IMG/VR virus record: IMGVR_UViG_3300006143_000333
Location: 32,001-96,000 of that record
DNA from: a virus
Taxonomy: Duplodnaviria > Caudoviricetes
Length of the DNA stretch: 64,000 nt
Strand: one strand, 5' to 3'
In this document: positions 24,012 to 48,465 of the stretch, one piece after another
Numbering within the stretch: the first letter of the stretch is position 1
Layout of the letters: the number at the start of each line of letters is the position of its first letter
The notes under the pieces: generated by a model
What the model was told of the DNA's origin: nothing
Databases searched by the model: none
The model's input: only the letters and a program-made list of their open reading frames with translations
Made by a program: the position numbers and the translations under genes

Positions 24012-24252
24012 GTCGGTAATTCCACAAATTAAAAATTGAATACAGGTGGTGATATTTATATAGAAACTTTTTATCATGGAACATCTGATACTTTAGATGT
24101 GAACAAAATAATTAGCTGATAAAGCAGTAGTAATAGGACAAATTTAGTCTTGAAATAAATCTTTCATAGAAAAAGAAATAGTAAATATAAGACGAAAGGA
24201 GTAAGAGGTTTGCTGTCCAGCATTAAAGACTGTCTTTACTCTAAAAGGTATA

Positions 24253-25107
24253 TTGGAAACAAATAAAATTTATTGTGGTAATTGTATTGATATTCTTAAA
24301 TCTTTCCCTAATAAAAGCGTGAATTGTTGCATAACAAGCCCACCTTACTATGGATTAAGAGATTATGGCGTAAGCGGACAAATCGGAAACGAAGATACAC
24401 TAGAACAATACATAGAAAATTTGGTAAATGTATTTGAACAAGTAAAAAGGATTTTAAAGGACGATGGAGTTCTTTGGTTAAATCTTGGTGATAGTTGGCT
24501 TGGAACTGGTGGAGAGGGAAGATATAAAAGAAATCAAAATATGAAGGCATCAGGAATAAAATGCAAAGACTTAATAGGTATTCCGTGGATGGCAGCATTT
24601 GCATTGAGAGAGGCTGGTTGGTATCTTCGTCAAGATATAATTTGGGCAAAAGGAAATCCAATGCCTGAAAGTGTTAAAGATAGATGTACAAAATCTCATG
24701 AATACATATTTTTGCTTTCCAAATCAAGAAAATATTATTTTGATTATGAGTCTATAAAAGAACCAGCAAAATATCCTAATGATAATCGTGGAAGCAGAAA
24801 TGATAGTCGTAGAGGAACAAAAATGAATAGCATAAGTGGTGTCACAGGGGAAAAGCGCAATAAGCGTGATGTATGGAATGTAAATACAAAACCATGTAGA
24901 GAAGCACATTTTGCAACATTTCCAGATACACTGATTGAACCATGTGTATTAGCTGGTTGTCCTGAAGGTGGCATTATCTTAGACCCATTTATGGGAGCAG
25001 GAACAACGGGAATGGTCGCAAAAAGACATAATAGGAATTATGTTGGAATTGAATTAAATCCAGATTATGTTCAGATTGCAGAAAATAGAATAGAAAAGAA
25101 GTCTTAA
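24253..25107 (+). CDS. N4/N6 DNA methyltransferase (beta class)
   Basis: ITSPPYYG, HFATFP, LDPFMGAGTT. Confidence 0.92.
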   Translation: METNKIYCGNCIDILKSFPNKSVNCCITSPPYYGLRDYGVSGQIGNEDTLEQYIENLVNVFEQVKRILKDDGVLWLNLGDSWLGTGGEGRYKRNQNMKASGIKCKDLIGIPWMAAFALREAGWYLRQDIIWAKGNPMPESVKDRCTKSHEYIFLLSKSRKYYFDYESIKEPAKYPNDNRGSRNDSRRGTKMNSISGVTGEKRNKRDVWNVNTKPCREAHFATFPDTLIEPCVLAGCPEGGIILDPFMGAGTTGMVAKRHNRNYVGIELNPDYVQIAENRIEKKS

Positions 25108-25131
25108 AACCCACGTTTCAAAGGAGATAAG

Positions 25132-27958
25132 ATGAAATATTTTAATGTTCCACAATGTTATAAAGAGAAAATAGTAGTTATTATAGACGGTGCTTTTAAA
25201 GGAGTTATTGGTGTATTAACATCATTAGAAATGAGTTATTTAAGAGAAACAACTTGTAAAATTAATATAGACTACAGAAATACAATCACTGTCAATTATA
25301 ATCAAATTATTTCTTTGGATATATCTGTATTTGAAGATTGTGACATTGATATATCTAATGAAGATGGTACTTTTAAAAATGTATTTGAAATTATAAAATA
25401 TGGAGAAAAAAATATTATGCCAACAAAATCATTTGATTTAGAACTTATGGGAATTAAGAATCTTCATTTCTATATTGCCAAACCAGAAATAGTAGATGTA
25501 AATATCGTTGTGCCAGGCAAGGTTGTAGAAGTAGTTTTTGCAGATGGGACAAAAGAGAAATCTGTATGTAGAGAACCTGATACATTTAGTTTAGAATCCG
25601 CAATTTCAATTTGCATTTCTAAGAAAATTATGGGTGGATCTTCTGCTTATAATAATGCAGTTAAGCATGGTATGAAGGTTTATGAGGACAAGCAGAAGAA
25701 AGAACTTGCTAAAAAAGAAGAACAGGAACGCATTGAGAAGAAACGTACTAAGAGACTTGCTTATAAGGAGCGTAGAGCTGCTAAGAGGGCTGAGGAAGAG
25801 AAACGGAGAAAGGCTAGAGAACGTGAAGAGCAGATTGCGATTCAGACGGAGGCATATCTGAGAGTGATGAAAGAAATAGGTAGTATTCAGTACAATCCAG
25901 CAAAAGAAGTGTTTAGTTAATTTATTTTATCACTGTCTCTCGTCAATATTATTTATATTTGGCGAGAGATTTTATGAAGGGAAGGAATATATATTTTTAT
26001 GACTAACGAAGAAATAATTAGAAAGAGAGTAGCAAGGGAAATATTATCCATGATTGAGACTATTTGTTTCAGCGAAGAATTTAAAGATTTTAGAATCGGA
26101 CAAGGAAGTAATGGGACAAGGGATTTAATTATTGAACGCATAAAGAATACATATGACATTGGATGAAATCTGCGATTTATTGGGAGGTTAATGGATTTGA
26201 AGGAATGTAGATTCTGTAAAGATAGAACAAGATGTGAATATGCTATGAATGATTATCCTGGCTCTGGCGATCTTTGGAAAGCAAAGAAATATTGTGAAAA
26301 AATTCAGAGACAAGAAGTAGAAACTATTAGCGAAAATGACAATAAAGTATTTAAAGAAAAAGTAGAAAAATTTCTTTCACAAGGATATAAAATCTCTTCT
26401 ACCAATTGTGGTTATGCTGGAGAAGTTGGTGGAAATGTATACGATTGCGAATACTGGATGGCGATTTTGATTAAGGAGTGATTGAATATGAAAGACATAA
26501 ATATTATTATCAAAGACGCTTTTGGAAGAGAAATCAAAACTAACACAGATCAGATTGAGGAAGATGTTCTGCGAATGAGAATAGGATTGGAACCACAGGA
26601 ACAGGATGGTGACTAATGCGTAGAAGAATCACAGGCAATATTTATACTGGTCTTGGGAATCCATCGCCAGTAATTTTTGACAACGAATGGACAGATAATA
26701 AAAAATTTAATGATGCTGTAAAGTTGTTCTTTGAAGATATTCTAAATTTATTAAAAGACGAAACTATTAATAGTGTTGGTGGTTTTGATTTCAAAATAGA
26801 ATTAGAAAATAACAGTTTTAAAATCTTATTTGGTATTGAGCCATCATATATGTATGATTCATATATCTGCTATTGTTTTGATAGTGAAAAAGAGAATAGT
26901 TATATACATAAAGAACGGGCTTTTGGGTATTATGGTGCTGACATTAAAATTAAATCGAATAAAAGTTATAAGAGATGTGGTAAGGAATTTAGTGAATGTA
27001 TGGATAAGTATTATGAAAATTTGATGAGGTGTTTAAGTGAATAATGGAATATTTGCAAAGTATACAGGAATTCCAATAATAGTTGTTCCTGATAGTAAAA
27101 AGCAAAATAGAACACATAGGAAAAAGAGAATTAACAAGAAATGGGCTAAAAGATATGGATATACAACATATAATTCCATTGAAGATGAACAGATCATTAC
27201 AATGAATGGAAGCATGTATGTGAATCCGAGAACTTATTATAAGCTAAAATCTCTTGAATTATATACTTAGAAATTCATTCTGTGTGGGAGGTGAATAATG
27301 AATTCAAAATATGAAAATATGTCTTTAAAAGAAATTATTAGACAGATAGAAAAGAAGGATAAAAGAATTGCTAAGTTGGAGAAAAAAGTTTCTGATATGA
27401 ATGACACCATCAGAACAATCGGTAATCAGAATCGTAAACTGAAAAGAAATAATGAAAGATATCAGGAACGATTAACAGAAGTTTTATATAAAGGTGAGAT
27501 TAAGAATTGCTCAACATGTAAAAATAATGTTAAATTTCCTCCTCCTCATACTTGTGATATTTGTACCAGTTTAGACCAGGAAGAAGAATATGAGATGTGG
27601 GAGGAAAGGATTGAGATTAATTGATGCAGATAATTTAACAAAAGAAACAGAAAAATCTATGCATGACAATCCTCATAAAAATAGACAAATTTCTCAAAAT
27701 CATTTAACAGAACATATTCATTTTTTGTCATTAATTGGAAGACAATCAACAGTAACAGATGATAGAATTACGAAAGCATTGGAGCTTGTATGGAATTATG
27801 GTCAAATTGATGGAGATAATCATAAGACATGGATTATTGATCAAATTGTTAGAATTTTGTGTGGTAGTAATGAGGAATATAAAAAGTGGGTTGATAAATA
27901 TGAAGAACCTTTAGAAGATGGTGATTATTACAGTTGGAATCAAGGTATCAATTCTTAA
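25132..27958 (+). other. Run of hypothetical ORFs (25132..25920, 26191..26481, 26616..27044, 27037..27270, 27298..27624, 27590..27958)
   Basis: ORF track, plus-strand SDs. Confidence 0.6.
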
Positions 27959-27996
27959 ATCTTGCATTTCATTGGCAAAAAAACGGAGGTTAGAGA

Positions 27997-29025
27997 ATGA
28001 ATATTGAACAAATTAAAGAAGTATTGAAAACAGGTGAATATGATTTCCTGAGAGAAGATAAAAATTTAGGTGATAATATCATTCTCTTGACACTCGGAGG
28101 AAGTCATGCTTATGGAACTAATAATGAGAATAGTGATCTGGATGTTCGTGGTTGTGCGTTAAATAGTAAAATGCAGATTCTCACAAATGAAAATTTTGAA
28201 CAATTTGTAAATGAAGCGACTGATACAACAATTTACTCATTCAATAAGTTGATTTCTCTGCTAAGTAATTGCAATCCTAACACCATTGAGCTACTTGGGA
28301 ATAAACCAGAACATTATTTATATGTATCAAACATTGGAAAAGAATTGATTAATAATTCTCATTTATTCTTATCCAAGCGAGCAGCGTATTCTTTTGGAGG
28401 ATATGCGACAGCACAATTAAGGCGGTTGGACAATAAAGCTGTTAGATTAGTTAATCAGAAACAGAGAGAAAGACATATTCTAAACAGTATTATGAACGCA
28501 TTTCATACTTTCCCAGAGAAGTATTTTCATTTTGAAGAAGATAATATCAGATTATATATTGATAAATCTGAACAAGAAGAGTATGATACAGAAATTTTTA
28601 TGGATGTAAATTTACATCATTATCCATTGAGAGATTATAAGTCAATGTGGTCTGAAATGAATAATGTTGTGAAGGATTATTCTAAGATTGGCAAGAGAAA
28701 TAAAAATGCCATTGAACATAATAAGCTGGGAAAGCACATGATGCACCTTATCAGGCTTTATATGATGTGTCTTGATATTCTTGAACATGAAAAGATTGTA
28801 ACATATAGAGAAAAAGAGCATGAACTTCTTATGGATATTCGTAATGGAAAGTTTCTTGATGTGGACAGACAACCAATTCCTGAATTTTATGAAATGGTTG
28901 ATGATTACGAGAAGAAGTTAGAGTATGCAAAGAATAATACGAGTCTTCCTGATAATCCAGATTATAAGCGGATCAATGAATTTGTAGCAAGTGTGAATGA
29001 GAGAGTGGTGAAAAATGAGATTTAG
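27997..29025 (+). CDS. DNA pol-beta superfamily nucleotidyltransferase
   Basis: GGSHAYGT..SDLDVRG, NPNTIELL, KHMMHLIRL. Confidence 0.85.
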   Translation: MNIEQIKEVLKTGEYDFLREDKNLGDNIILLTLGGSHAYGTNNENSDLDVRGCALNSKMQILTNENFEQFVNEATDTTIYSFNKLISLLSNCNPNTIELLGNKPEHYLYVSNIGKELINNSHLFLSKRAAYSFGGYATAQLRRLDNKAVRLVNQKQRERHILNSIMNAFHTFPEKYFHFEEDNIRLYIDKSEQEEYDTEIFMDVNLHHYPLRDYKSMWSEMNNVVKDYSKIGKRNKNAIEHNKLGKHMMHLIRLYMMCLDILEHEKIVTYREKEHELLMDIRNGKFLDVDRQPIPEFYEMVDDYEKKLEYAKNNTSLPDNPDYKRINEFVASVNERVVKNEI

Positions 29026-30376
29026 TATAGAAGTTCCTGTATCAGTAAGTTATATCATACAGGAATTAGAGAAATGTGGACATGAGGCATACATGGTAGG
29101 CGGCTGTGTAAGGGATAGCGTGTTGGGAAGAAAACCACATGACTATGACATATGCACATCTGCCACTCCTGATGAGATATTGAAGGCATTTCCCAATGAA
29201 GAAATTATTCCGACTGGTCTTCAGCATGGCACAATAACAATTTTAATAAATAAGGAACCATTTGAGGTAACAACTTATCGGATTGACGGAGATTACTCTG
29301 ATAATCGTAGACCTGATAATGTAACATTTACAAAGAATCTGGTTGAAGATTTACGGAGAAGAGATTTTACGATTAATGCTATGGCATACAATCCTAAAAC
29401 TGGTTTAATTGATCCGTTTAATGGCATGGAGGATATCAAATATAAAAAGATTCGATGTGTTGGCTCCGCAGAAGACAGGTTTAATGAAGATGCTCTGCGA
29501 ATACTCAGAGCAATAAGATTTGAAGCACAGTTAGGTTTTGCAGGGTTTCCAGAAACAATGTTTGAAATAGATCGACAATATGAGCGGTTAAAGAATATTT
29601 CCGTTGAAAGAATTAACAGTGAATTTTGTAAAATAGTTGCTTCTAATCAGTTCTGTGTGGAATTAGTTTTGTATCCCGATGTGTTCTCTTTATTTATCCC
29701 AGAATTAAAAGATATGATAGGTTTTCAACAGGATAATCCATATCATGCATATGATGTATTTGATCATACAGTACATGCGATAGAAAAATGTGAATCGGAT
29801 GATTTAATTGTAAGGCTTGCAGTTTTCTTTCATGATTTTTGGAAGCCACATTCTTATCAGGATGGAGAAGATGGTATTAGGCACTTTAAAGGTCATGGAA
29901 AAGTAAGTTCTGATATTACTGACACTATTATGAAACGTCTTAGATTTGATAATGAAACCAGAAATAATGTAGTAGAACTGGTATATTATCACGACGCTAC
30001 TTTTGAAGTTGGAAAGAAGTATGTTAAGAGATGGCTTAATAAAATCGGTGAAAAGCAGTTTAGGCGGTTGTTAGAAGTCAGGAAAGCGGATATTAAAGGA
30101 CAAAAACCGGATTATGAAGAATCTCGGATAGAGAAAATAAATAATATAGAAAATATTCTTGAAGAAATATTATCTGAGAAATCTTGTTTCTCATTAAAGG
30201 ATTTAGCGGTTAATGGTAACGATGTAAAAGAGGTGATGAAACTCAAAGAAGGTAAAGATATTGGGTATTGGTTAAATGAGATACTGAAACGTGTTATAGA
30301 TGGAGAATTAGAAAATAATAAAGATGATTTGGTTTATTGGATGACAGGTGTTAGAGATGGTTGGATAAAATTTTAA
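29015..30376 (+). CDS. cca: CCA-adding tRNA nucleotidyltransferase with HD domain
   Basis: VGGCVRD, DYDI, DLRRRDFTINAMA, EDALRILRAIRF, HD. Confidence 0.9.
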   Translation: MRFSIEVPVSVSYIIQELEKCGHEAYMVGGCVRDSVLGRKPHDYDICTSATPDEILKAFPNEEIIPTGLQHGTITILINKEPFEVTTYRIDGDYSDNRRPDNVTFTKNLVEDLRRRDFTINAMAYNPKTGLIDPFNGMEDIKYKKIRCVGSAEDRFNEDALRILRAIRFEAQLGFAGFPETMFEIDRQYERLKNISVERINSEFCKIVASNQFCVELVLYPDVFSLFIPELKDMIGFQQDNPYHAYDVFDHTVHAIEKCESDDLIVRLAVFFHDFWKPHSYQDGEDGIRHFKGHGKVSSDITDTIMKRLRFDNETRNNVVELVYYHDATFEVGKKYVKRWLNKIGEKQFRRLLEVRKADIKGQKPDYEESRIEKINNIENILEEILSEKSCFSLKDLAVNGNDVKEVMKLKEGKDIGYWLNEILKRVIDGELENNKDDLVYWMTGVRDGWIKF

Positions 30377-30391
30377 GGAGGGTTTGATAAT

Positions 30392-31285
30392 TTGAAGTGT
30401 TTTTATCATGTAGATGATGATGGGAAATGTGCTGCATTTTGGGTGTATTTAAGTGCAGGAGTATATGATGGATATGAGTCAGAATTTATTCCTATCAATT
30501 ATGGAATGGAATTTTCTTTTGACAAGATAAATCCTAATGAGCAGGTATATATTGTTGACTATTCAATTATGCCAGACGAAATGAGAAAACTGTTAGAAAT
30601 AACAAAAGATGTAACCTGGATTGATCATCATAAATCAGCAATAGAAAGATATACGGATTTTGAAATTCCTATTCGTGGAATTAGATATGACGGGATAGCC
30701 GCTTGTATGCTTACATATTGTTGGTTGCATCATATGACTGAAAGAGGAGGTGGCAATCCGAAAAAATTTGATATTTCTATGACAAAAGATGCACCTATGT
30801 TTACAAAATATATTGCTGATTATGATGTATGGGCTTTTGAATATGGTGCTGATACAAGATATTTTCATATGGGATTTGATGCATACGATAAAAGCCCAGA
30901 TAACGAGATTTGGTATAACCTTTTAGATGATGATGCGGAGAATAAATATATTGAAGAAGGAAAAGCAATCATCAAGTATCGTGATAGTTTTGCAAAAGAA
31001 TACTGTAAATCTAAAGGCTTTGAAACAGAGTTTGAAGGTCATAAAGTATATGCAATGAATATTGGACTAGCTGGTAGTGATTGGTTTAAATCTGTAGATG
31101 ATGGTTCCTATGATATATTGATGCCATTTTTATTTAATGGAAGAAATGGTACATGGACATATAGTATGTATTCAAAAACTGTGGATGTATCTGAAATTGC
31201 AAAGAAATATGGTGGTGGAGGTCATAAGGGAGCTGCTGGATTTAATACGAATAGGTTGATTTTTGAGAGAAAAGGAGAAATTTAA
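30392..31285 (+). CDS. DHH/DHHA1 phosphoesterase
   Basis: DDDG, WIDHH, GGGGHKGAAGF. Confidence 0.88.
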   Translation: MKCFYHVDDDGKCAAFWVYLSAGVYDGYESEFIPINYGMEFSFDKINPNEQVYIVDYSIMPDEMRKLLEITKDVTWIDHHKSAIERYTDFEIPIRGIRYDGIAACMLTYCWLHHMTERGGGNPKKFDISMTKDAPMFTKYIADYDVWAFEYGADTRYFHMGFDAYDKSPDNEIWYNLLDDDAENKYIEEGKAIIKYRDSFAKEYCKSKGFETEFEGHKVYAMNIGLAGSDWFKSVDDGSYDILMPFLFNGRNGTWTYSMYSKTVDVSEIAKKYGGGGHKGAAGFNTNRLIFERKGEI

Positions 31286-31286
31286 T

Positions 31287-32444
31287 ATGGCAGATAGAGC
31301 ATTGGCACATATTGAAAAAATTGAGTGGGTAAGACCGATTGATGGAGCAGATAATATTGAACTTATTGGAGTCCTTGGATGGGTTTGTATCGCAAAGAAA
31401 GAAGAGTTTAAGCCAGGAGATTTAGCCGTGTACATTGAAATTGATAGTAAATGTCCTGAATCTGATGAAAGATTTGCTTTCTTAGCAACAAAGCATTATA
31501 AGGTAAAAACAATGAAGCTAGGGAAATTTAAGGTTATTAGTCAGGGACTTGCACTCCCGATTTCATTATTTCCAGAGTTGAGTGATAAAGCTATTGGATC
31601 GGACGTGACTGAAAGTCTTAAAATTACTTATTCTTGTGAAGAAGATATTAAGAGAAAGTCCAATAATATAGATTCTAATGCTAAATATAAGTCTATGGCT
31701 CGGAGACATAAGAAATTCTTCAGCAGACCGCTTGTTCGTAAGATTATGAGATATAAGTTTGGCAGGAAAATTATGTTCCTGTTCTTTGGTAGGAAGAAGG
31801 ATAATCCAAAAGAGTTTCCTAAGTGGATTGTTAAGACGGACGAGACACGAATTGAGAACGCACCGTTTTATCTTGAAAGTACCGATAAATGGATTAAGAC
31901 AGAGAAGTTGGACGGAACAAGCTGCACATTTGCTGTAGACAGAATTAAGAAGAATAAGTTTGAGTTTATTGTTTGTAGTAGAAATGTGAGACAGGCAGAT
32001 AGAAATCAGGAAACTTACCATGAGTCAAATGTCTATTGGGAGCTGGCAGATAAATATGGCATTGAAACAATTTTAGCTAAGTTTGCTACAGAGAATGGAT
32101 ATAATAGAGTGGTTCTCCAGGGAGAGGGTGTCGGATCAGTTCAAGGTAATCCATACAAAATGAAAGAGAATAAGTTGTTTGTATTCAATCTGATTGTTGA
32201 TGGTGTACGCCTTGGAACTGTAGATATGGCTAAGTTCTGTGAACAGAATGGTTTAAAGAATGTACCAATTATTGATACAGAATATGTTCTGCCTAAGACT
32301 ATGGAAGAAATGAAGCTGGAAGCTGACGGATATAGTGAAATCAATCCAAAGGTAAAAAGAGAAGGATTTGTGTATAGAAGTGTTGATGGACAGCAGAGCT
32401 TTAAAAACGTATCAAGAGAATATTTGCTGAAGCATAATGGGTAA
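31287..32444 (+). CDS. ATP-dependent RNA ligase (Rnl2/DRB0094-like)
   Basis: PIDGADNIE, KTDETRI, TEKLDGTS, QGE, REGFV, SFK. Confidence 0.88.
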   Translation: MADRALAHIEKIEWVRPIDGADNIELIGVLGWVCIAKKEEFKPGDLAVYIEIDSKCPESDERFAFLATKHYKVKTMKLGKFKVISQGLALPISLFPELSDKAIGSDVTESLKITYSCEEDIKRKSNNIDSNAKYKSMARRHKKFFSRPLVRKIMRYKFGRKIMFLFFGRKKDNPKEFPKWIVKTDETRIENAPFYLESTDKWIKTEKLDGTSCTFAVDRIKKNKFEFIVCSRNVRQADRNQETYHESNVYWELADKYGIETILAKFATENGYNRVVLQGEGVGSVQGNPYKMKENKLFVFNLIVDGVRLGTVDMAKFCEQNGLKNVPIIDTEYVLPKTMEEMKLEADGYSEINPKVKREGFVYRSVDGQQSFKNVSREYLLKHNG

Positions 32445-32795
32445 TAGGCAATAAATTCGAGATTTTAACTGAGGAGATGATGAATGATTATAGGAAAATT
32501 TATAGGTACAAATTCTTGCGGTTTTAAAAAAGGAGGTACATATATGATAAAAATATCAATAAAGAGATTTCAAGGAAAGTATTGTATATTCTTACGGGAT
32601 CTTAAAAGCAATGCAGAATGTCCATATTCAAGTTTAGATAGTTTGTTACGAAATTGGATGATAATAGGAGAATGATTTGAACCCAGATGTAGAAGATATA
32701 TTCTGAGATGAAAGGTCAATGTATTAGGACTTATTATTTTTAACATTCTTTTGTTATAGATGTTATAAAACAGATATAAAATATAAGGAGGACAA

Positions 32796-35402: not shown

Positions 35403-35414
35403 AGGAGGAAACAA

Positions 35415-36179: not shown

Positions 36180-36200
36180 TTGAAAATGGAGGGTTAAATA

Positions 36201-36839: not shown

Positions 36840-36840
36840 T

Positions 36841-38658: not shown

Positions 38659-38695
38659 AGAGAGAGTATGGGGGTGAGTAAGGGGAAATTCCCTC

Positions 38696-38854
38696 TCACT
38701 CTCCACCAGGACCATCACGACGTGGCACTTCATCTGGAATTATATTTTCGGCATCGGTTGTCTTTGGAAGATCAACCTCTGGAATATTGTCATCGTCATA
38801 ATCGTCATTGGAGTAAGGATTTATTGTTGGTAAATTTGTTTTACTACTTTTCAT
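38696..38854 (-). CDS. 52-aa acidic protein
   Basis: MKSSKTNLP...PDEVPRRDGPGGE behind AAAGGAGTG SD. Confidence 0.6.
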   Translation of the reverse strand: MKSSKTNLPTINPYSNDDYDDDNIPEVDLPKTTDAENIIPDEVPRRDGPGGE

Positions 38855-38944
38855 GCGTACACACTCCTTTCATAGGTAGTGTTTGTATAAGTGAAAAAAA
38901 TATGTATAGATATTAAAGGAAATTTTAAGTAGGAGGTGAAAAAC

Positions 38945-39070
38945 ATAGATAATCGTTGGAAAGTACAAATAGCTGCGTGGATCACGACTGCGATAGGAGT
39001 TATTGCAGGAGTATATTTTACGAAGTCACCTACATGCTTGTGGGCATTTTTATTACCGTTATGGTGTTGA
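38945..39070 (+). CDS. 41-aa membrane peptide, ATA start
   Basis: AGGAGGTG-6nt-ATA; DNRWKVQIAAWITTAIGVIAGVYFTKSPTCLWAFLLPLWC. Confidence 0.55.
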   Translation: MDNRWKVQIAAWITTAIGVIAGVYFTKSPTCLWAFLLPLWC

Positions 39071-39083
39071 AGGAGCTGAGACT

Positions 39084-39380
39084 ATGAAATTGATGGAAGA
39101 AAAAATACAAGATGTGTTAATCGAAATATTAAAAGAGTTTGGCATTCCTGAAAATTTTTATTCTCTTGGAGGATATGCAGAAGAAACAGTTTGTCTTGAA
39201 AAGAAAGGGGACACTTGGATTGTATATGGTGGTGAAAGAGGGCAAAAGCATAATGTAATAACACATATAAATTGTAAAAGTGCTTGTCTTGATCTTTTAA
39301 GCAGACTTGCAGAAACAAGAGTTGAAGAGGAAAGGATGAAGATCTTTTTCGAAATAAAATGCAAAAAGATAGAAGAATAA
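39084..39380 (+). CDS. Immunity-protein-like ORF
   Basis: YSLGGYAEETVCL..WIVYGGERGQK..AC pattern resembles polymorphic-toxin immunity proteins. Confidence 0.4.
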   Translation: MKLMEEKIQDVLIEILKEFGIPENFYSLGGYAEETVCLEKKGDTWIVYGGERGQKHNVITHINCKSACLDLLSRLAETRVEEERMKIFFEIKCKKIEE

Positions 39381-39652
39381 ATATAGATGAAAAATCTGTT
39401 TCATCGCAGGAGGTGATTTAGAGTGTATGTTACAAACCTTTGAAGAAATGTGTGATAGCGAAGAGATTTGTAGTTATTGCTCTCATACAGAATATGGAGA
39501 ATATAAGTCTGGTGTTACACCAAATGGATATTGGAGTTGTGAGGGTAGTTGGTGTAAAGACGCATATGAAGATTATTTAGATGAGAATGGAACAACAGAT
39601 AATATTGTAAAATATGCAAGTGTTGTTAAATTGGTAAACAGGGAGGAATTTA

Positions 39653-40255
39653 ATGGGAACACCACTTAAATTTGAGTTTGATTTTGATGAAGTATTTGAA
39701 GGAATCAAACAGGGTGTAATAAGAGAATTGTCAGAAACAAATTTTGATGAAGCCAAAGAATCAGCTATAAATCAGATTAAAAGTGAAGTAAAAGAAAAGC
39801 TGGCTCTTACATATAGTGATGAATATGCTTTAAAGGATGAAATTAAAAAGGAAATAAAAGAGAGAGTATTTGATAAACTTATTAAAGATATTGATGACAA
39901 ATATTTAGAACAGTTTGAAGGTTACATAGAGTCACAGTTGACAAAGAATCCTGACAGATTGGAGCAGTTAAAAAGAGAAATTAAAGATGGGTTGACTGAA
40001 AATCTATATGATGATTTATATCATTCTATTAAAGAAGAAGTGATTGGACAAGTTAGAGAAACGACTACTCAGTTATGTAATTTGATTGGTGGTAACAGTG
40101 TTAAAGCAGAGGGTTCTGATAGAACAATTTCTAAAAAGGAATATGAAGAGTTGATGGATAGAAATAGAAAACTCAGTGCTTTAGAGGCTGGCGGTGTAGA
40201 TAACTGGGAATGGTATAGTGAGTCTTTAAGTCAGTATTATGATGAAGAAGAATAA
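39653..40255 (+). CDS. Coiled-coil phage protein
   Basis: C-terminal LEAGGVDNWEWY motif common in phage ORFs. Confidence 0.65.
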   Translation: MGTPLKFEFDFDEVFEGIKQGVIRELSETNFDEAKESAINQIKSEVKEKLALTYSDEYALKDEIKKEIKERVFDKLIKDIDDKYLEQFEGYIESQLTKNPDRLEQLKREIKDGLTENLYDDLYHSIKEEVIGQVRETTTQLCNLIGGNSVKAEGSDRTISKKEYEELMDRNRKLSALEAGGVDNWEWYSESLSQYYDEEE

Positions 40256-40331
40256 ATAAAAGAAAAATAGTACAGAAAGGAACAAAGGTGCTGCAGCCGT
40301 GAGATGATCATACCTTTCTGGGTAAAGAAAA

Positions 40332-41219
40332 ATATTTGAGAATAATAATTATGAATTATGGCAAGGTGATTGTTTGGAATTGATGAATGATATTCCTGAT
40401 AAAACTATAGACGCAATAATAACGGATCTTCCTTTTGGGCAGACTGCTAGGAATGTTTGGGATATAGTAATTCCATTTAATGACTATATAAACTTAGAAG
40501 TCAGAAGGAAGCCAAAAATATTTTATAAAGATGATTTTCTTTTATGGTGTTATAAACAAGGAGAGACAGATTATAACGGAGCAGTTACATATTTTGAAGA
40601 AAATAAATCTATAGGATTGTGGACTCAGTATAAAAGAATTATCAAAGATAATGGTGCAATTATTTTATTTGCAAATGGTATGTTTACTGCCGATCTTATG
40701 GAAAGCAATAGAGAGATGTGGAGGTACAATCTTGTCTGGGAGAAAACTCAACCTACAGGGTTTCAAAATGCTAATAGGATGCCAATGAGAAATCATGAGG
40801 ATATGTGTGTATTCTATAAGAAACAACCAACATATAATCCTCAAAAAACAAGTGGTCATATCAGAAAAGTTAGTACAGCTTCACACAAAAGAAATAGTAA
40901 GCAATCAACAAACTACAACGAAATCAAAAATCATACATATGACAGTACAGAAAGATTTCCTAAGTCAGTTTGGCTATTCGCCAAAGATACCCAAAAGTGT
41001 GCATTAACTCCAACTCAAAAGCCAGTAGCATTAGTAGAAGAAATTATTAAAACTTATACTAATGAAGGTGATACTGTGTTTGATTCGACTGCTGGTAGTA
41101 TGACAACTGGAGTAGCTGCTATTCGGACAGGTAGGAAGTGTATTTGTATTGAGAATAACGAAGAGATATTTAATATCGGTAAAAATAGAATTACGGAATG
41201 TGTGAAAGAGAATAAATAA
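40332..41219 (+). CDS. N4/N6 DNA methyltransferase
   Basis: QGDCLELM (in frame back to ATA 40332), TDLPFG, PTQKPVAL, FDSTAGSMTT. Confidence 0.85.
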   Translation: MFENNNYELWQGDCLELMNDIPDKTIDAIITDLPFGQTARNVWDIVIPFNDYINLEVRRKPKIFYKDDFLLWCYKQGETDYNGAVTYFEENKSIGLWTQYKRIIKDNGAIILFANGMFTADLMESNREMWRYNLVWEKTQPTGFQNANRMPMRNHEDMCVFYKKQPTYNPQKTSGHIRKVSTASHKRNSKQSTNYNEIKNHTYDSTERFPKSVWLFAKDTQKCALTPTQKPVALVEEIIKTYTNEGDTVFDSTAGSMTTGVAAIRTGRKCICIENNEEIFNIGKNRITECVKENK

Positions 41220-41383
41220 AAGTATTCCGAAATGTTTTTTTAAGGACTATTGGATAGAGGTATTTCTAATGCCTTATGTATACGAGTTTGTCTATATAGA
41301 ATGGGTGTGATATCCAATAGAAAGCCAATTTTATTGCAAGAAAATAAGGCAATCCGATGACTGCCTTACCCTCTTAATGAACA

Positions 41384-41548
41384 CTACTTCTTATGTTTCT
41401 TCTTTTTGGACTTTGTGTTAATCTCAAAATCTTTGTATTTAATATGTAAGTTCCTGAGAACAAAGCCACTTACCAACACCAAGATTGATAGTGCCAAAAT
41501 GACACAAGTAGGTGTCTGAAAAAGTTGAATGATAGATGAGATATTCAT
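41384..41548 (-). CDS. 54-aa single-TM peptide with basic tail
   Basis: AAGGAGG SD; own TTTACT-17-TATAAT promoter and downstream hairpin TAAGGCA/TGCCTTA. Confidence 0.7.
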   Translation of the reverse strand: MNISSIIQLFQTPTCVILALSILVLVSGFVLRNLHIKYKDFEINTKSKKKKHKK

Positions 41549-41762
41549 AGGCGCCTCCTTTTCAGGAGGAAAAATTAGCTTAATGTGTTCGTAAATATAA
41601 TTATAACACAAGTGACTAAAATAGTAAAGAAATAGCAATGAAAATTTCGATTCATTGGTAGTTTAAAAGTAGAAGTAACAATTAAGCATGTGCGAAAAGT
41701 AATCAAACAGGAGGAAATGAGGTTTCTGCGCAGAATAAATCATGATTTACTCCTAAAGTTAT

Positions 41763-42602
41763 TTGAAAGAAGAAAAGTACATAAAAAGTCCACTTAATTA
41801 TGTGGGTGGAAAGCATAAATTGTTAAAAGAAATATTACCGCTATTCCCAAAGGATATTCACACGTTTGTTGATTTATTTGGAGGCGGATTTAATGTTGGT
41901 GTGAATGTAGAAGCAGAACATATTATTTATAACGATATATGTGAACCAGTAGTAAAATTCCTAAGATGCCTATCTGGAAGCGATATTGATAAAATTCTTG
42001 CTGAAATTGATAAATACATAGAAAAATACAACCTAACAAAAGAAAATAAGGAAGGATATTTGCAACTTAGAGAAGATTATAATAAAGGAACTAAATCCGC
42101 AATGAAGTTTTATACATTGCTTTGTTATGCATTTAATAATCAAATACGTTTTAACAAAAATGGCGATTATAATATGCCATTTGGTAAAGATAGGAGTAGT
42201 TTTAATCCTGCATTAAGACAGAAATTTATTGATTTTCATAAAAGGATTAATGTAATAGACTGTGTATTTATAAATATTCCATTTGAAAGGTTTGATTTTT
42301 CGGAATTAGATAGCAAAGATTTTGTATATTGTGATCCGCCATACTTCAATAGTGTAGCAACTTATAACGAGCAGAACGGTTGGACTGAAGAACATGAAAA
42401 GAAATTGTTGTCTGTATTAGATGTGTTAAATGAAAAAGGCGTTAGATTTGCATTAAGCAATAATCTTAAATATGAAAATCCACTTTTGGATGAATGGAAA
42501 AATAAGTATAACATTCACTATTTGAATGGTAATTATAGCAATTGTAATTATCAAAAGAAAGATAAGAGTCAAGATATAGAAGTGTTAATTACGAATTATT
42601 AG
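41763..42602 (+). CDS. Dam-like (D12 class) DNA adenine methyltransferase
   Basis: YVGGK, DLFGGG, RFNKNGDYNMPFG, YCDPPY, EVLITNY. Confidence 0.92.
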   Translation: MKEEKYIKSPLNYVGGKHKLLKEILPLFPKDIHTFVDLFGGGFNVGVNVEAEHIIYNDICEPVVKFLRCLSGSDIDKILAEIDKYIEKYNLTKENKEGYLQLREDYNKGTKSAMKFYTLLCYAFNNQIRFNKNGDYNMPFGKDRSSFNPALRQKFIDFHKRINVIDCVFINIPFERFDFSELDSKDFVYCDPPYFNSVATYNEQNGWTEEHEKKLLSVLDVLNEKGVRFALSNNLKYENPLLDEWKNKYNIHYLNGNYSNCNYQKKDKSQDIEVLITNY

Positions 42603-42623
42603 TCTTAAAACATCGGTTTCAAA

Positions 42624-42772
42624 GGGAGTCATTAGTTCATAACTGATGATTTCCATTCGAGAGATAGTTGCCTTACCAATTCTAACGACTCTCTTCAAAC
42701 GGTAGGAATGGCGTTTACGACAGGTGGTAGTGAAGATCCTTCCTTGTACGAGAACAAGGGCAAACTACACTG
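42624..42772 (+). ncRNA. Candidate structured RNA with possible pseudoknot
   Basis: Three stem domains; loop CCTTACC complementary to downstream GGTAGG. Confidence 0.4.
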
Positions 42773-42797
42773 AAATATAGAAAGGATAATTTAAAAA

Positions 42798-43853
42798 ATG
42801 AATAGAGATATAGGTGCTAAATTACCACAAACAAATTGTAGAACACCAATGCAACCTGTAAAGGAATTTGGTGAAAAAATTTGTGAGAATTGTGATAAAG
42901 AAGATGTGTGTATGTATAAAGAAGAGTGCATAAAAGCTATAAAGGATATTTTGGATATCGAGAGTAGAACTAATGTGTTTATTAAAACACATATTGATTG
43001 TAAGAAGTGGAGTAAGAAGTCAAATATAAATGATATTGCTTACAGATAAAATTTTCATTTCAAAGGAAGGAGAAATATGTTTCAAAATATAGTTATTTGT
43101 GATAGATGTGGAGAAAAGGCAAATTTTTGTGGAACTTCCTATTATACAATACATATTTCTGCCCATGATATAAATCCGACTAATGACGGACGATTATATG
43201 TTGATACGGCAGTTCAGAATGTACATGAGAATATGAGTAAGATTTTTGGTAAAGAACGTCATTATTGTAAAAAGTGCAAAGAGAAAATAGAAAAATTTAT
43301 GAGCGAGGTAGATGATGACAATAGAACAGAAAATTGATTATATGATTCAGTCTTTACAGTTAGCAAAAGAAGAAATTACTTATGCAAAATGGTATACAGA
43401 AGGAAAAGAAAAAGATCGAAATTTTGATTGGTATGATCATCCTGGATATCAAAAAAGAAGTCCAAACGGAACAATAATAAGAGAATCATTAAAGATGGTA
43501 GGTAGAATGGCTAATATAATGGCAAATAGTATTTGTCTAAGCCCATATAATAAAAATTTGTATAAAGAATAAATCAACTCTTTCATTGAGAAAATAGGAG
43601 GGATGACTTGATTGTTGGAGGATATGATACCGATGATTTGACAGATAGACAAAATCATGTATTTCGTAAATTATATAACAATCCAGTAGCCAATAATAAT
43701 CTATTAGCTTTGAATTTTCTATCTTATTCTGTACGTAAAAATTTTAGATGTAGAGAATTTTATAATTATGAAGATGATTGTGATTACTTGTTAAGGATAG
43801 AAAAAGAAACATTAAGCAAATATGGAATAGATTTAAAAGAACTGTATACTTAA
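42798..43853 (+). other. Four small ORFs (42798..43049, 43077..43337, 43312..43572, 43608..43853)
   Basis: ORF track; stops at 43047 and 43570 form left arms of junction repeats. Confidence 0.6.
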
Positions 43854-43876
43854 TTAAAAGCACAAGGAGGAATCGC

Positions 43877-45164
43877 TTGAAAAGTAATATATTTATTCCC
43901 AAAACAATAAATGTAGGATATCAGAATCGTTCTGGTACATACACAGGAAAATTAGCTTATGTAATTTATTATGATGAAAAAGGAAAGCTGCGGAAAGAAG
44001 CATCTTGGAATAGCTGGCGTGATGAAAAGATTCCAAATGAAGAATTTGATAATGTGCCAACAACTGGATTTGTATTAAATAAAAAGGTTGGTGATTATTC
44101 TTCGGGCTGGGATCATAGACAAGCATATTGTAGAGTGTATGATCCACGAAACTTTGAATTTGAGATAACTATTGAAAATCTGTTGTATATTCTTGAAAAT
44201 GCAAATTCCATCAAAGGTAAAGGGCTTGAAGGAGAATTTGTTTATGGATGGGATGGTAAAGACTTGGTGTTAATGCCGGTAGAGTCTCCTGATTATAAAC
44301 AGATCACAGAATATAACAAAATTGTTCATAATAATGAGAGTATTAAAGCAAAAAGATTTGATTGTAGGAGCTACATATCTAACCAAAAACAATGAAGAAA
44401 GAATTTATTTGGGCAAATTTGATTATTACTCATATGGTTATAGGTGGTTAGAAGACGGAGAATATAAAACTAGTAAAAATTCAGATGATATACCGACAGA
44501 AAGTGGTAGTGGTTCTGGTTGGTATAGACATAAAATTTCGTATGATAGTATTGATTATTTATATGGAAAATATTTTTGGTTTGCTTATAAATATTATGAT
44601 TATGATTACGTTAATGGAGAAAAAGTTTATAGAGATAAATATGAATGGCATTTTGAGCAATATAAGAGTATATCAGCAAACAAATTTATTACTTGTGTTG
44701 ATAATAAATGCACACAGGATTATTCAGATATTTATGAGTCTATGATCCGTACCAATCATTTTTCACCTAGAGACTTTGATAATTTAAAATATATTCCATA
44801 TTCTTTTGAAGAATTTAAAGAATATGCAGAGAAAACAGAAGATAGATACAATCGAGGTATTTTTTGTAGATATAATACGAACTATTTCTCTGATAGTTAT
44901 TGTAAATATGAAATTTCCTGTGATGATGAAACAAATTTATGGACAGTTAAACAATCTTATTATGAGAATGATGATGATTTTTATGGCAGGTTTATTTTTA
45001 AAGATGAAGAGGTCAATAATTATTGGGGAAGTAGGAAAATTATAAAAAAGATTATTCCGATGACAATAGAAGAATTATATGAGAGGTTAAAACCTTGCTA
45101 TAAAGAAATTTATTTACGGAATGGTAAATTATTTGGAAGGGAGTGCTACTATGGCAACAAATAA
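43877..45164 (+). pseudogene. Phage protein split by an apparent +1 frameshift in an A-run near 44350
   Basis: 43877..44395 and 44322..45164 join as ESIKAK-DLIVGATY if one A is removed. Confidence 0.6.
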
Positions 45165-45555
45165 TGATGAAAGAGTTTTACAACTAAAACAGGTTATTGA
45201 TAAGAAGAAAACAGAACTAAAAGGATCAAAGAAGTTCACGCCACTTACAAATTGTGTCCTAGATTTAGAAGGGCAGAGATACAATTTGAATGTTCTCCAG
45301 TTTGATGATTTGCAGTTGTTGCTTGTTAGATTGAATATGTATTTAATGTCTGTTAAAGATCTGGGAATCAGTTTGGAAGTTTCGGGGTATAACATTGTAG
45401 AATGGATTACGGATATCAAATGTAAGATTGAGATTTTCGAGTATAAGAAGAAAGAAGCAGAGCTGAAGGCATTAGAAACTAAATTGGACAAGATGTTATC
45501 TGATGAAAAGAAGACTGAATTGGAACTGGATGAGATTGCTGCATTATTGAATTAG
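45151..45555 (+). CDS. Hypothetical protein coupled to the preceding gene
   Basis: ATG behind GGGAG, overlapping upstream stop. Confidence 0.7.
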   Translation: MATNNDERVLQLKQVIDKKKTELKGSKKFTPLTNCVLDLEGQRYNLNVLQFDDLQLLLVRLNMYLMSVKDLGISLEVSGYNIVEWITDIKCKIEIFEYKKKEAELKALETKLDKMLSDEKKTELELDEIAALLN

Positions 45556-45893
45556 TCTTGAAATTTTGCTTTCATTGAGTCAGGGGGAAGATGTGGAAGA
45601 ATTAGAAAAAATATTAAAACAGATGGCGAATCAACCAATACAGGTGCTTAAAGAGCCAGAAATTTATTACATAGTAAGTATCAAGGAAAGATATATTTAT
45701 GACTTACATTTAACCACAATTACTAAAGAATTTTGTGGACGAATAGAGAATCAAACAAGCACAAGCATTTATTTTAGACTTAATGGAAGTGATGCTTTAG
45801 TAATAATTCCTCATAACTGGATTGAGTGGATGGCACCAGCAAAAGAACTATGGCAAGCAATATAAAAATAAATTATAAAGGAGAAAGAAATTT

Positions 45894-46445
45894 ATGAACA
45901 AGAAAACAAATTGGAAGTTACCGTTAATCATTGGAGCAGGTATTGTTGCTGTTATTTTACTTTGTGTATTTGGTGTACAGAGTTCCCAGAACAGGGCGTT
46001 TGCTTTGGAGGAACAGGTAAACACAGCACAGTCGGATATCAAAGTTCAGGAGAAACGAAGAGTAGATTTAGTGTACAACCTTGCAGATTGTGTAAAGCAG
46101 TATGACAAACATGAGTCTGAAACTCTTACAGCCATTGCAGAGGGGCGTGGATCAGCAGGTGATATTGAAAATGTAACGACAGCTATTACAGCGGTTTCAG
46201 AAGCATATCCTGAGTTAAAGTCTAATGAAAACTATAAGCAGCTTATGAATGAACTGGCGATGACTGAAAACTTAATTGCAGAATATAGAAGTAATTATAA
46301 TAAACAGGTCAAGGAATATAACAGATATGTAAAGGCATTTCCTACTAGAGTTTTTCTAAATATTCTCGGATATGAAAAGCAGAATTATACATATTTGGAT
46401 TATGACGCACCTTCTGACGCACCACAAAATTTGTTTGGAGATTAA
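45894..46445 (+). CDS. lemA: LemA family protein
   Basis: N-terminal TM, RRVDLVYNL, EAYPELKSNENY, YNRYVKAFP. Confidence 0.9.
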   Translation: MNKKTNWKLPLIIGAGIVAVILLCVFGVQSSQNRAFALEEQVNTAQSDIKVQEKRRVDLVYNLADCVKQYDKHESETLTAIAEGRGSAGDIENVTTAITAVSEAYPELKSNENYKQLMNELAMTENLIAEYRSNYNKQVKEYNRYVKAFPTRVFLNILGYEKQNYTYLDYDAPSDAPQNLFGD

Positions 46446-46447
46446 AT

Positions 46448-47194
46448 ATGAGTAGATACAGTTATAGGAATCGTGGATTTGATTTTGGAGACTTTGAAAT
46501 CACCAAGAGAGAAATTTTAGCAAGTATTTCTATTATAGCTGTAATGTTGCTTATTGGTGTTCTGATTTCTGGCAAGATTTCAGAACACCAGCTAGATGCA
46601 AATGAAGTCTATAACAAGGCAGTGAAAATAGATAATATAGATTTGTTTCAGTATGGCATGGACACAAATGTAGGTAATGCGTTTGTATATGGTGATTTAG
46701 TGGCAGTTGACACAGTTACTTATCCTGAAATTGGCGGAGAGTATATGTATATTGAAAAAGTGAAGGAGAAATATACAAGACATACTCGAAGAGTGAAATC
46801 AGGGAAAACATATCATACACAAGTTTATTGGACGTGGGATAGAGTAGGTAGCGAAGATAGAAAGTGTCAGGAAATTTCTTTTTGTGGAATTGCTTTTAAT
46901 AGTAATAAGATTGATTTACCAAGCACAGATTATATAGACACTATCAAAGAATCAAGTCATATCAGATATAAATATTATGGTGTTGGAACAAAATATACAG
47001 GAACCATATTTACAGATTTGAGAGATCAGACTATTTCAGATAATACTCAATTTTACAATAACAAAAATATAGAAGAAACAGTTAAGCAGTTAGAATCTGG
47101 TGGTGGAGTGATTATATTCTGGATATTTTGGATTCTGTTGACTGGTGGTTGTGTGTTTGGATTTTATTATGCAGAGAATAAGTGGTTAGAGTAA
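46448..47194 (+). CDS. Two-TM membrane protein coupled to LemA
   Basis: N- and C-terminal hydrophobic helices. Confidence 0.7.
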   Translation: MSRYSYRNRGFDFGDFEITKREILASISIIAVMLLIGVLISGKISEHQLDANEVYNKAVKIDNIDLFQYGMDTNVGNAFVYGDLVAVDTVTYPEIGGEYMYIEKVKEKYTRHTRRVKSGKTYHTQVYWTWDRVGSEDRKCQEISFCGIAFNSNKIDLPSTDYIDTIKESSHIRYKYYGVGTKYTGTIFTDLRDQTISDNTQFYNNKNIEETVKQLESGGGVIIFWIFWILLTGGCVFGFYYAENKWLE

Positions 47195-47236
47195 GGACTT
47201 AAAACCAGAGTTTCAAGGGAGATGGAGGTGATATAA

Positions 47237-48031
47237 GTGCTGTTTTGGCTTCAAAAAGAGTTAAATAATAAAATTGATATTGATACTACAATCCTACAGG
47301 AAGAACTTGATAAGCAAAAAATTAATCATTTGTATGATATTGGAACCATGAAAGATTATGAGTGTATTTTGAATACAGATATGATTGAGAAAGAAAATTT
47401 GGAGAAAGTAATCCCTGTAGGTAGTCTTGATTTTGTACAAATGATTCTTTCTAGGATACATAATGTCAATAATATGAATCCAATAGAAGTTCCAGATGTT
47501 CTTAGAGAAGATAGATTCTTGAAACGTAAATATTCCATTGTGCCTAAAAATAAACTTCCAAAGGAAGGATATTATTTCACAAAATATGTTTCAAAACTGA
47601 AAGTATTTAGCCATACAGGAATGATAGAGACTCTGCAATATACAGACGATGGTAAGGAACCATTTCTGAAAGAAGGATTATATCAAGTATCAGAAGTGGT
47701 GGATATTTTATCTGAATATCGTTGCTTTGTACAGAATGATAAGTTGGTTGCTATAAATTATTATGATGGAGATTGTACTGTATTCCCAGATGTCTCAGAT
47801 ATAAAAACTATGATTGGCAATTATATGAGAGATCAAGATAGACCAAAAGCATATACAATGGATATTGCTGTAATTCGTAATAGTGGTACTGCAATTTTAG
47901 AAGTGCATCCGTGGGTAAGCGTTGGATTATATGGGTATATGTTTGGTGGTTCTCTTCCATATTACTACAAAGATGGATTTGAATATTATATCAATTCTAA
48001 TAAAGAAATAAAAGAATGGAGTAATTTTTAA
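47237..48031 (+). CDS. ATP-grasp (DUF4343/R2K-like) protein
   Basis: PVGSLDFV, SEYRCFV, YTMDIAV, ILEVH..GLYG. Confidence 0.7.
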   Translation: MLFWLQKELNNKIDIDTTILQEELDKQKINHLYDIGTMKDYECILNTDMIEKENLEKVIPVGSLDFVQMILSRIHNVNNMNPIEVPDVLREDRFLKRKYSIVPKNKLPKEGYYFTKYVSKLKVFSHTGMIETLQYTDDGKEPFLKEGLYQVSEVVDILSEYRCFVQNDKLVAINYYDGDCTVFPDVSDIKTMIGNYMRDQDRPKAYTMDIAVIRNSGTAILEVHPWVSVGLYGYMFGGSLPYYYKDGFEYYINSNKEIKEWSNF

Positions 48032-48465
48032 AGGATAGTAGAGGTGATTTTTATGAGTGAATATGTAGAATTACCAAAAGGTTATAACTTTGATACGGTA
48101 TTTGATACTTATATTTTGGCGTTTTGTCCAGATACAGATTCATGGTTCGCTACTAATCAAAGGTTTTTCTATTATGAATACCAAAAGGAATTTAAAAGCG
48201 AATCTGAAGCAATAGAGTATTTTAAAAATAATCCAAATATATTTTTAGAACAAGAAGAAAGAATGAAAGTATATCGTCCAACCTTTTATGCTGAAGGAGT
48301 ATATTTGGATAATACAAAAGAACTCATAAAAGTATCAATGAAAGGTTAATTTCATGGAATAAAAATAGAAGAAATATGATGTGATAGTTGCAAATATCAC
48401 AAATAAAATTAGGAGGAAACGAGATTTGACTGGTCGATAAATGTACATTTGCTCCTAAAAAGTAA

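Follow-up and report, generated by a model that had tools for sequence, protein, structure and literature searches.

A putative Shine-Dalgarno-sequestering leader shared by unrelated DNA-modification genes of clostridial phages

The window analysed here is a 64,000-bp stretch of phage DNA, bases 32001-96000 of the IMG/VR virus contig IMGVR_UViG_3300006143_000333 (128,958 bp, 32% GC, CheckV completeness about 71%), which comes from mouse gut metagenomes and has no close relative in the phage GenBank collection. Four DNA-modification genes in the window are each preceded by a leader of about 50 bases that follows a common plan: a GGAG-type 5' arm resembling a Shine-Dalgarno (SD) sequence, a purine-rich linker, two successive palindromes (slots 1 and 2, forming hairpins 1 and 2) and a CUCC (or CCUUUCU) 3' arm. 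The original prediction, made from the letters of the window alone, had placed leaders at these four sites, and all were present as given, ahead of three DNA methyltransferase genes (N6_N4, N6_N4 and D12) and a PAPS_reduct gene, as it had claimed. The leaders and their genes are as follows (window positions).

24194-24244, plus strand: leader S1, canonical GAAAGGAGTAAGAGGTTT type; GGAG at 24198-24201, ACTCT at 24238-24242
24211-24222 and 24224-24238, plus strand: palindromes of S1, the first imperfect, the second odd (GACTGTC)
24253-25107, plus strand: N6_N4 DNA methyltransferase gene behind S1 (PF01555, E = 2.3e-54); TTG start 10 nt past the 3' arm
40273-40320, plus strand: leader S2; arms CAGAAAGG and CCTTTCTG, an 8-nt perfect inverted repeat; linker AACAAAGGT
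40290-40297 and 40304-40311, plus strand: slots of S2, GCTGCAGC and ATGATCAT
40326-41219, plus strand: N6_N4 DNA methyltransferase gene behind S2 (PF01555, E = 5e-28); frame open from 40326
41709-41754, plus strand: leader S3; AGGAGG arm, linker AAATGAGGT, CTCCT arm at 41750-41754
41724-41735 and 41736-41749, plus strand: palindromes of S3, 12 nt abutting 14 nt
41763-42602, plus strand: D12-class N6-adenine DNA methyltransferase gene behind S3 (PF02086, E = 2.7e-40); TTG start 8 nt past CTCCT
48411-48456, plus strand: leader S4; AGGAGG arm, linker AAACGAGAT, CTCCT at 48452-48456
48426-48437, plus strand: slot 1 of S4, TTGACTGGTCGA; core GACTGGTC with a central U·G
48439-48450, plus strand: slot 2 of S4, a 12-nt palindrome
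48466-49467, plus strand: PAPS-reductase-like gene behind S4 (PF01507, E = 3.2e-16; phrog_424, E = 4.3e-47); TTG start 9 nt past CTCCT

S3 and S4 share a scaffold that runs AGGAGG, AAA-N-GAG-R-TTT, palindrome 1, (A/T)TAAA, palindrome 2 core, TTT-R-CTCCT, 8-9 nt and TTG. S1 is the GAAAGGAGTAAGAGGTTT version of this scaffold, and S2 has other arms on the same plan. The slots of S1 are decayed, with GCTGTCCAGC instead of the GCTGGCCAGC usual in most copies and with the odd palindrome GACTGTC, a slot-2 variant that recurs in the loci L230, L240 and L242. A scaffold identical to that of S3 stands ahead of other genes in L064-L066, L069 and L072, and the S4 leader also precedes the orthologue of its PAPS-reductase-like gene in L061. 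The back-to-back 12-nt and 14-nt palindromes of S3 are unique in the genome, where perfect palindromes of at least 10 nt are depleted (126 against about 190 simulated), and the pattern AGGAG-N30-50-CTCCTAAA was observed twice against 0.01 expected, an excess beyond chance.

A covariance model (R1) built from 68 diverse copies (A2) recovered S3 with 58.9 bits (E = 1e-13), S1 with 55.1 bits (E = 1e-12) and S4 with 47.5 bits (E = 1e-10). The next-best score in the 129-kb contig, 14.4 bits, fell on an ordinary ribosome-binding site ahead of a membrane-protein gene. S2 gave no match to the model and represents a divergent subfamily. Family searches of the contig returned exactly two N6_N4, one D12 and one PAPS_reduct gene and no C5 methylase over the curated cut-offs, and the leader is present at all four full-length matches to the four modification families searched. 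A 184-residue frame at 55475-55675 with a weak N6_N4 match (19 bits, below the cut-off) has no leader and may be a remnant. Against the 4227 models of Rfam 15, the whole window yielded only tRNA-Met at the gathering score, and a permissive scan (E up to 10) of S2, S3 and S4 gave only small nucleolar RNA and microRNA noise of 17-20 bits. Full-text literature searches found no description of the leader motif.

The leader is widespread. A strict pattern found 32 loci in IMG/VR and a relaxed one at least 116, and a scan of one genome per species in GTDB gave 62 stretches, nearly all in Lachnospiraceae and other Clostridia (carrier genera include Roseburia, Anaerotignum, Robinsoniella, Eubacterium, Dorea, Anaerosporobacter and Velocimicrobium). 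Cultured carriers with a match include Roseburia porci MUC/MUC-530-WT-4D, Robinsoniella peoriensis CCUG 48729 and Anaerotignum sp. MB30-C6. We parsed 127 copies from IMG/VR and from GTDB phages and prophages, and 125 distinct elements entered the palindrome statistics. Every parsed copy (n = 127) lies on the sense strand with one internal order, an order that the search patterns themselves required. The 3' arm ends 8-10 nt ahead of the start codon in 109 of the 127 (mode 9, n = 81), and the start is ATG in 96, TTG in 22 and GTG in 9. No SD-like tract was seen beside the start in the copy sequences inspected.

The window agrees with this in that its TTG starts have no SD of their own, as had been noted. 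The ATA start proposed for the S2 gene is unproven, since the frame has no canonical start: ATG, GTG and TTG are all absent ahead of the conserved GDCLE motif (window 40304-40376). The window has an ATG at 40304, within slot 2 of S2; there and in L260 (A5 run at 40328-40332) it is displaced by +1 from the gene's frame, and in L262 (A4 run) it is in frame. The L066 homologue of the S2 gene is the second of two tandem methylases and has its own ATG.

The proteins encoded downstream of the 127 copies fall into 47 clusters, 45 of which were scanned. Modification enzymes (methylases, PAPS-reductase-like and Mom-like proteins) make up at least 36 of these 45: C5 (12 clusters), N6_N4 (8, two of them fused to SNF2), D12 (5), PAPS_reduct (5), gamma-class N6_Mtase (3), other methyltransferase folds (2) and Mom/DruA-like (1). 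Three more clusters match the phrog_424 PAPS reductase, including the commonest unnamed one (18 of the 127 copies), and a radical SAM protein forms another. Chief among the exceptions is a double zinc-ribbon protein of 203 amino acids (15 copies). Its gene (6706-7317 in L051, and at 14 other loci) is the commonest non-enzyme cargo and adjoins a G39P-type helicase-loader gene. One leader ahead of at least five unrelated enzyme families that act, or are predicted to act, on DNA cannot be an accident. The claim of an unrecognised conserved cis element tied to genome-modification genes is supported, and Rfam has no match to it.

Comparison of the copies identified the sense strand as the one that pairs. 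Across the 125 distinct copies, the two hairpins break Watson-Crick symmetry by G·T 79 times and by A·C once, where a constraint on double-stranded DNA alone predicts equal numbers. Across 112 model-aligned copies, 90.3% of cells are paired (72.6% after shuffling) and the covariation score is 0.48, compared with 0.15 for shuffled alignments and 0.04-0.11 when partners were slid. The two inner hairpins do change in sequence while their pairing is kept, as had been proposed from the four window sites. The arms are GGAG:CUCC or AGAAAGG:CCUUUCU in all copies, and a fifth outer pair, after GGAG, covaries (U-A commonest, with C-G and U·G variants). The predicted pairing of the SD-like 5' arm with the 3' arm is likewise supported, both by the 8-nt repeat of S2 and by minimum-energy folds, which pair the arms.

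For six diverse copies RNAfold always gave a long outer helix, GGAGURAG with CUUUACUCC, which takes the 3' half of hairpin 2. As this half can pair in two ways, the leader has two states that exclude each other, one with the long outer helix and the other with hairpin 2 and a short outer helix. The three-way junction of the original prediction is accordingly a possible fold; it is not the predicted minimum-energy fold. Two junction purines covary even though they are not complementary (GAG-G/TTT-A in 113 copies, GAG-A/TTT-G in 7, from at least four contexts, G/G in 5 and A/A in none), which hints at a contact in the junction state.

The plan recurs in leaders of other sequence. S2-type copies (L041, L042, L057, L064-L066, L072, L260, L262 and L264) have the arms AGAAAGG and CCTTTCT, the linker AA(C/T)AAAGG(T/C) and a start codon 8-11 nt past the arm, and their cargo is always a methylase gene. 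In their slots, compensatory changes turn GCTGCAGC into GTTGCAAC, and ATGATCAT into AGATATCT or GACATGTC. In L261, an orthologue with 72% identity to the S2 gene has a canonical leader instead. A broad S2-type pattern (AGAAAGG..CCTTTCTG) run against IMG/VR gave generic hairpins, with no S2-type copy among the matches listed. A third type, ahead of 76%-identical D12 orthologues in L014-L036, has reversed polarity: a true GGUGA SD 6 nt 5' of TTG pairs with an upstream GTTCAC, enclosing a 12-nt palindrome and overlapping a 10-nt one. In the canonical and S2 types the SD arm is on the 5' side. The three subfamilies are unrelated in sequence and share the same logic, so that the common theme is SD/anti-SD pairing wrapped around perfect palindromes.

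The architecture, conservation, sense-strand pairing constraints, fixed spacing and gene association described above are seen directly in the copies. Sense-strand pairing, combined with SD and 16S-tail-like arms in fixed register with the start codon, makes translation initiation the best-supported function. On this comparative evidence, the element is probably a cis-acting mRNA 5' leader that controls translation initiation of DNA-modification genes through SD sequestration. The sole strong ribosome-binding sequence is GGAG(G) or AGAAAGG, about 45 nt 5' of the start codon, and it pairs with a pyrimidine tract, (U)UUACUCC(U) or CCUUUCU, a partial copy of the 16S rRNA 3' tail that occupies the normal SD position 8-10 nt ahead of the start. 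Between the arms lie a second, exposed purine-rich SD-like linker (RAGGU) and the two short hairpins. If the 3' half of hairpin 2 stays in its own hairpin, the outer helix is short and a three-way junction results; if it joins the 5' arm, the outer helix reaches 8-10 bp.

For the direction of control (on or off) and its trigger we infer the following. The default state would keep translation low or off for enzymes that are potentially harmful and needed in small amounts. Initiation would depend on the junction state, in which the 30-nt insert is folded away and an SD-like tract comes close to the start, on a factor acting in trans to open the outer helix, in the manner of Com on Mu mom, or on both. 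The best candidate for 30S access is the exposed RAGGU linker, which the junction may bring near the start in a split-SD arrangement like that of T4 genes 25 and 38.

Several observations weigh against translational control by this route. The SD is never at the canonical linear distance from the start, whether the outer helix is closed or open, and the route of ribosome initiation is therefore unexplained. RNAalifold calls hairpin 1 only, and single-sequence energies are modestly better than those of shuffles (z 0 to -2.7); those of the window copies are unremarkable (z 0 to -1.45) and uninformative on stability. A simple hairpin model does not account for the self-complementarity of the loops, which vary far less than the 0-3-nt linker separating the two hairpins. 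No trans-acting factor was identified: the Com-like zinc ribbon PF10122 had no match in the contig, a search that was silent in control genomes too and is hence uninformative.

The sequencing runs consist of contigs only, which show neither ends nor strand and are silent on transcription starts. Contigs from an RNA library, which may contain DNA, span 41712-41959 (from the S3 leader into its gene) and 41179-41541. The latter overlaps a small hydrophobic antisense frame of about 55 amino acids (41384-41551, minus strand) between two methylase genes, with a lysine-rich tail and a strong AAAGGAGG site. Three other translational devices were considered and rejected. For a leader peptide, frameshift or hop from an upstream TTG, the frame offsets show no relation to the real start (25, 33 and 29 for 0, +1 and +2) and the TTG is not conserved. 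For coupling through an upstream stop in the 5' arm (TAA or TGA after GGAG), upstream frames end 2-20 nt ahead of GGAG in 63 of 156 cases, and none ends within the arm. Small reverse-strand open reading frames served by the AGGAG complementary to CTCCT depend on slot content and are not conserved.

The palindromy of both hairpins runs right through the loops, a feature that the original prediction missed. About 96% of the 250 slots are palindromic through the centre and 14 are odd palindromes; the central nucleotide pair is Watson-Crick in 240 of the 250, G·T in 10 and nothing else. This palindromy is kept by selection and is not a sign of youth, because the linker varies freely among copies with identical slots. 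Loop conservation points to an extra constraint, which possibly acts on the DNA duplex or on a duplex of two RNAs. The enzyme does not dictate the slots: identical slot pairs stand ahead of different families, slot 2 is either TCATGA or TCCGGA in front of D12 genes that are 97% identical, and all 16 possible 4-nt palindromes were found as slot cores. CCGG has changed to CTGG in slots four or five times independently, always on the sense strand, which would fit either tolerance of G·U in a duplex or deamination of the non-template strand.

Comparison with relatives showed that genes are exchanged at the edge of the leader. L064 and L066 are 86-94% identical to window 41619-41757, and the identity ends exactly at the leader 3' end; both have an N6_N4 gene in place of D12 and become homologous again at 42600-42605, where the stop codon lies. 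In another study, metagenome contigs lose homology at the leader edges 41706, 40284 and 40321. The leader is conserved and the frames behind it are not, and it therefore serves as the 5' linker where recombination exchanges modification genes. A different rearrangement was seen among PAPS-reductase orthologues (76% identical), where a segment lies in both orientations between the 9-bp inverted repeats TAGTATTTT and AAAATACTA.

L001 2846-3002 versus L002 2844-2999: invertible 155-bp segment; also L004 and L008 versus L003, L005-L007, L009 and L011

The segment holds a leader of a different type, the ATG and the first six codons, and one orientation leaves the gene without a start. This has the look of an inverton acting as a switch for a phage DNA-modification gene. 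Both orientations were found only for this different leader, that of the L001-L011 orthologues.

Precise replacement from leader to stop codon, loss of homology at leader edges and the relatives' invertible segment would all suit an element that works at the DNA level, as would the two tyrosine recombinases encoded by the contig. The palindromes, perhaps with the outer inverted repeat, would then be recognised by a dimeric protein as DNA, either double-stranded or extruded, and the RNA features would be secondary. The protein could be a regulator that binds operators, or a site-specific recombinase by which cassettes of modification genes are exchanged or inverted. Palindromy through the centre is typical of dyad DNA sites and is unneeded for RNA hairpins. 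We nevertheless consider a DNA-level element unlikely. The strict sense orientation, the fixed 8-10-nt spacing to the start, arms that are SD and anti-SD sequences and the 79:1 ratio of G·T to A·C, which marks one strand as the pairing strand, all argue against it. None of the more than 125 elements was inverted, though a single internal order was a requirement of the search patterns, and four sequencing runs showed no strand-changing joint at 40000-49600 (being contigs only, they give no evidence either way on inversion). Slots differ between phages whose flanks and proteins are 97% identical, so that a sequence-specific protein would have to change with them. Ordinary homologous recombination at the conserved linkers suffices to explain the swaps and needs no dedicated enzyme.

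Palindromic loops imply either a full duplex, formed by two RNAs or by DNA read by a dimeric protein, or some other process. For their role we infer, as a rather improbable reading, that the leader is read twice or pairs with itself: two transcripts would form intermolecular RNA duplexes, or the same 50 bp would serve as dyad DNA sites and as an RNA switch. If true, RNA dimers would make a concentration-dependent switch that limits enzyme output as phage genomes and transcripts multiply, and a double role in DNA and RNA would make translation of the DNA-modifying enzymes depend on the state of the DNA. Either version would be a control principle undescribed for bacterial or phage mRNAs.

The slots could also be sites of phage or host methyltransferases or restriction enzymes, such that modification of the leader DNA feeds back on expression. 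Every slot core is a 4-8-bp palindrome in the style of type II enzymes, the cargo includes methylases, and the repeated CCGG to CTGG changes would fit deamination of 5-methylcytosine. S1 lacks the GGCC and GACGTC cores common elsewhere, and the genome strongly avoids both (GGCC 16 against 72 expected, GACGTC 0 against 4.4). Such a methylation sensor is very unlikely, given that the same slot pair precedes unrelated enzymes, that nearly identical D12 methylases differ in slot 2 and that any 4-nt palindrome may serve as a core. The commonest cargo is, besides, PAPS-reductase-like genes. Slot 6-mers are not specially avoided in the genome of the contig. In the DNA of the phages that carry leaders, a phage's own slot 6-mers have an observed/expected ratio of 0.69 and those of other phages 0.66, which is equal avoidance.

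A metabolite riboswitch on the three-way junction, responsive for example to S-adenosylmethionine (SAM), as the original prediction suggested, or to S-adenosylhomocysteine, would agree with the junction topology and its conserved purine-rich linker, with the use of SAM by most cargo enzymes and with SD/anti-SD pairing as the expression platform of the SMK-box, but is hardly credible: the riboswitch models of Rfam give no match even at E up to 10, the short purine-rich linker is the only strongly conserved unpaired stretch and differs in sequence among three subfamilies of like architecture, the other junction strands are 0-3 nt and variable, both hairpins vary freely, and PAPS-reductase-like (many of the cargo genes, and not SAM enzymes), Mom-like and zinc-ribbon cargo has no common ligand.

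In kind, the leader probably belongs with SD-sequestering translational leaders in general; com-mom, the T4 split ribosome-binding sites and the SMK-box are related devices of which it is not a member. In the com-mom operon of phage Mu, a translation-inhibition stem-loop is opened by the zinc-finger protein Com. There too a phage modification gene that is harmful if mistimed has its initiation region hidden by mRNA structure, translational control being what we propose here, and a Mom/DruA-like gene is among the leader cargo. The two have no sequence or structural similarity, however: the leader SD is 45 nt away from its start codon and paired with a mimic of the 16S tail, two palindromic hairpins lie between these arms, and the leader serves at least six enzyme families and not one gene. 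Nivinskas et al. are said to have described, in 1999, split ribosome-binding sites in phage T4 genes 25 and 38. As here, the SD is far from the start and the intervening RNA folds, looping the insert out. In the T4 genes a single hairpin leaves the SD free near the AUG, whereas the leader SD sits in the closing helix, its insert has two hairpins and the residual single-stranded path, about 14-24 nt, exceeds a normal spacer in length. In Lactobacillales, metK has the SMK-box (SAM-III) riboswitch, a small translational element whose regulated step, SD/anti-SD pairing within a branched fold, would be common to the leader; the leader differs from it in having no Rfam match or conserved ligand pocket and in its context, phage DNA modification and not SAM synthesis.

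Two further comparisons are instructive. Integron attC sites resemble the leader in that structure is kept while sequence varies, in single-strand-specific folding and in marking the boundary of exchangeable cassettes. They stand 3' of cassettes, have R and L boxes with extrahelical bases and need IntI, whereas the leader stands 5' in fixed register and has SD/anti-SD arms. No GTTRRRY boxes were seen in the leader copies, and the two tyrosine recombinases of the contig are generic and far away. Type I toxin mRNAs, such as that of the par/fst locus, have SD-sequestering 5' stem-loops, according to the passage of PMC3874152 that cites them. The leader shares with these mRNAs an intramolecular SD-sequestering fold that would keep a harmful product untranslated; no antisense RNA partner was identified for it, and its architecture and cargo differ.

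Phage DNA-modification enzymes decide survival of host restriction, and their control is known for very few cases. The leader would be a dedicated, portable control element common to at least six unrelated enzyme families across phages of Lachnospiraceae, which are abundant in mammalian guts. As a marker, it predicts that uncharacterised cargo acts on DNA (the 203-residue zinc-ribbon, radical SAM and phrog_424 families), and it shows where anti-restriction genes swap between phages. Its mode of translation initiation is odd, with an internal 16S-tail mimic at the SD position, and the palindromy of its loops is under selection that no tested explanation accounts for.

The surroundings of the leaders showed further features. 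The gene just 5' of S2 (39653-40255) ends in a T7 gp5.9-like RecBCD-inhibitor domain, and an R2K-clade ATP-grasp protein is encoded at 47237-48031, ahead of the PAPS-reductase unit, which places the leaders in an anti-defence neighbourhood. A hairpin precedes S4.

48380-48401, plus strand: upstream hairpin with TTGCAA loop, an inverted repeat 10 nt ahead of leader S4

In large-phage relatives (flanks of L049, L053 and L062) a TTGCAA-loop hairpin also stands 10-20 nt 5' of the leader. The loop is constant and the stem covaries (AGATAg..aTATCT; TATAGTGg..aCGCTATA with a U·G pair), and the motif also lies within the invertible segment of L002. A sigma-70-type promoter in this hairpin was considered; by eye, its spacings are inconsistent among relatives.

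Behind the D12 gene, a GC-rich intergenic block of 195 nt (42603-42797) is about 90% conserved in L064 and L066 despite the different gene that precedes it. It contains a long perfect hairpin at about 42624-42652, matches no Rfam model and folds with z = -1.5. The site T(G/A)AA(A/T)-N6-(A/T)TT(C/T)A occurs 71 times in the contig against about 22 expected, mostly in intergenic DNA and with spacers that are not palindromic. Its occurrences in the window (e.g. 24151, 25105, 41639, 42606, 48339 and 49476) flank the S1, S3 and S4 gene units, and homology blocks common to relatives begin or end near such sites (41639, 42606). Finally, several palindromic sites are strongly avoided in the contig (observed/expected): CAGCTG 0/17, GGATCC 1/11.5, GCATGC 0/7, GGCC 16/72, GATC 213/395 and CGCG 7/38.

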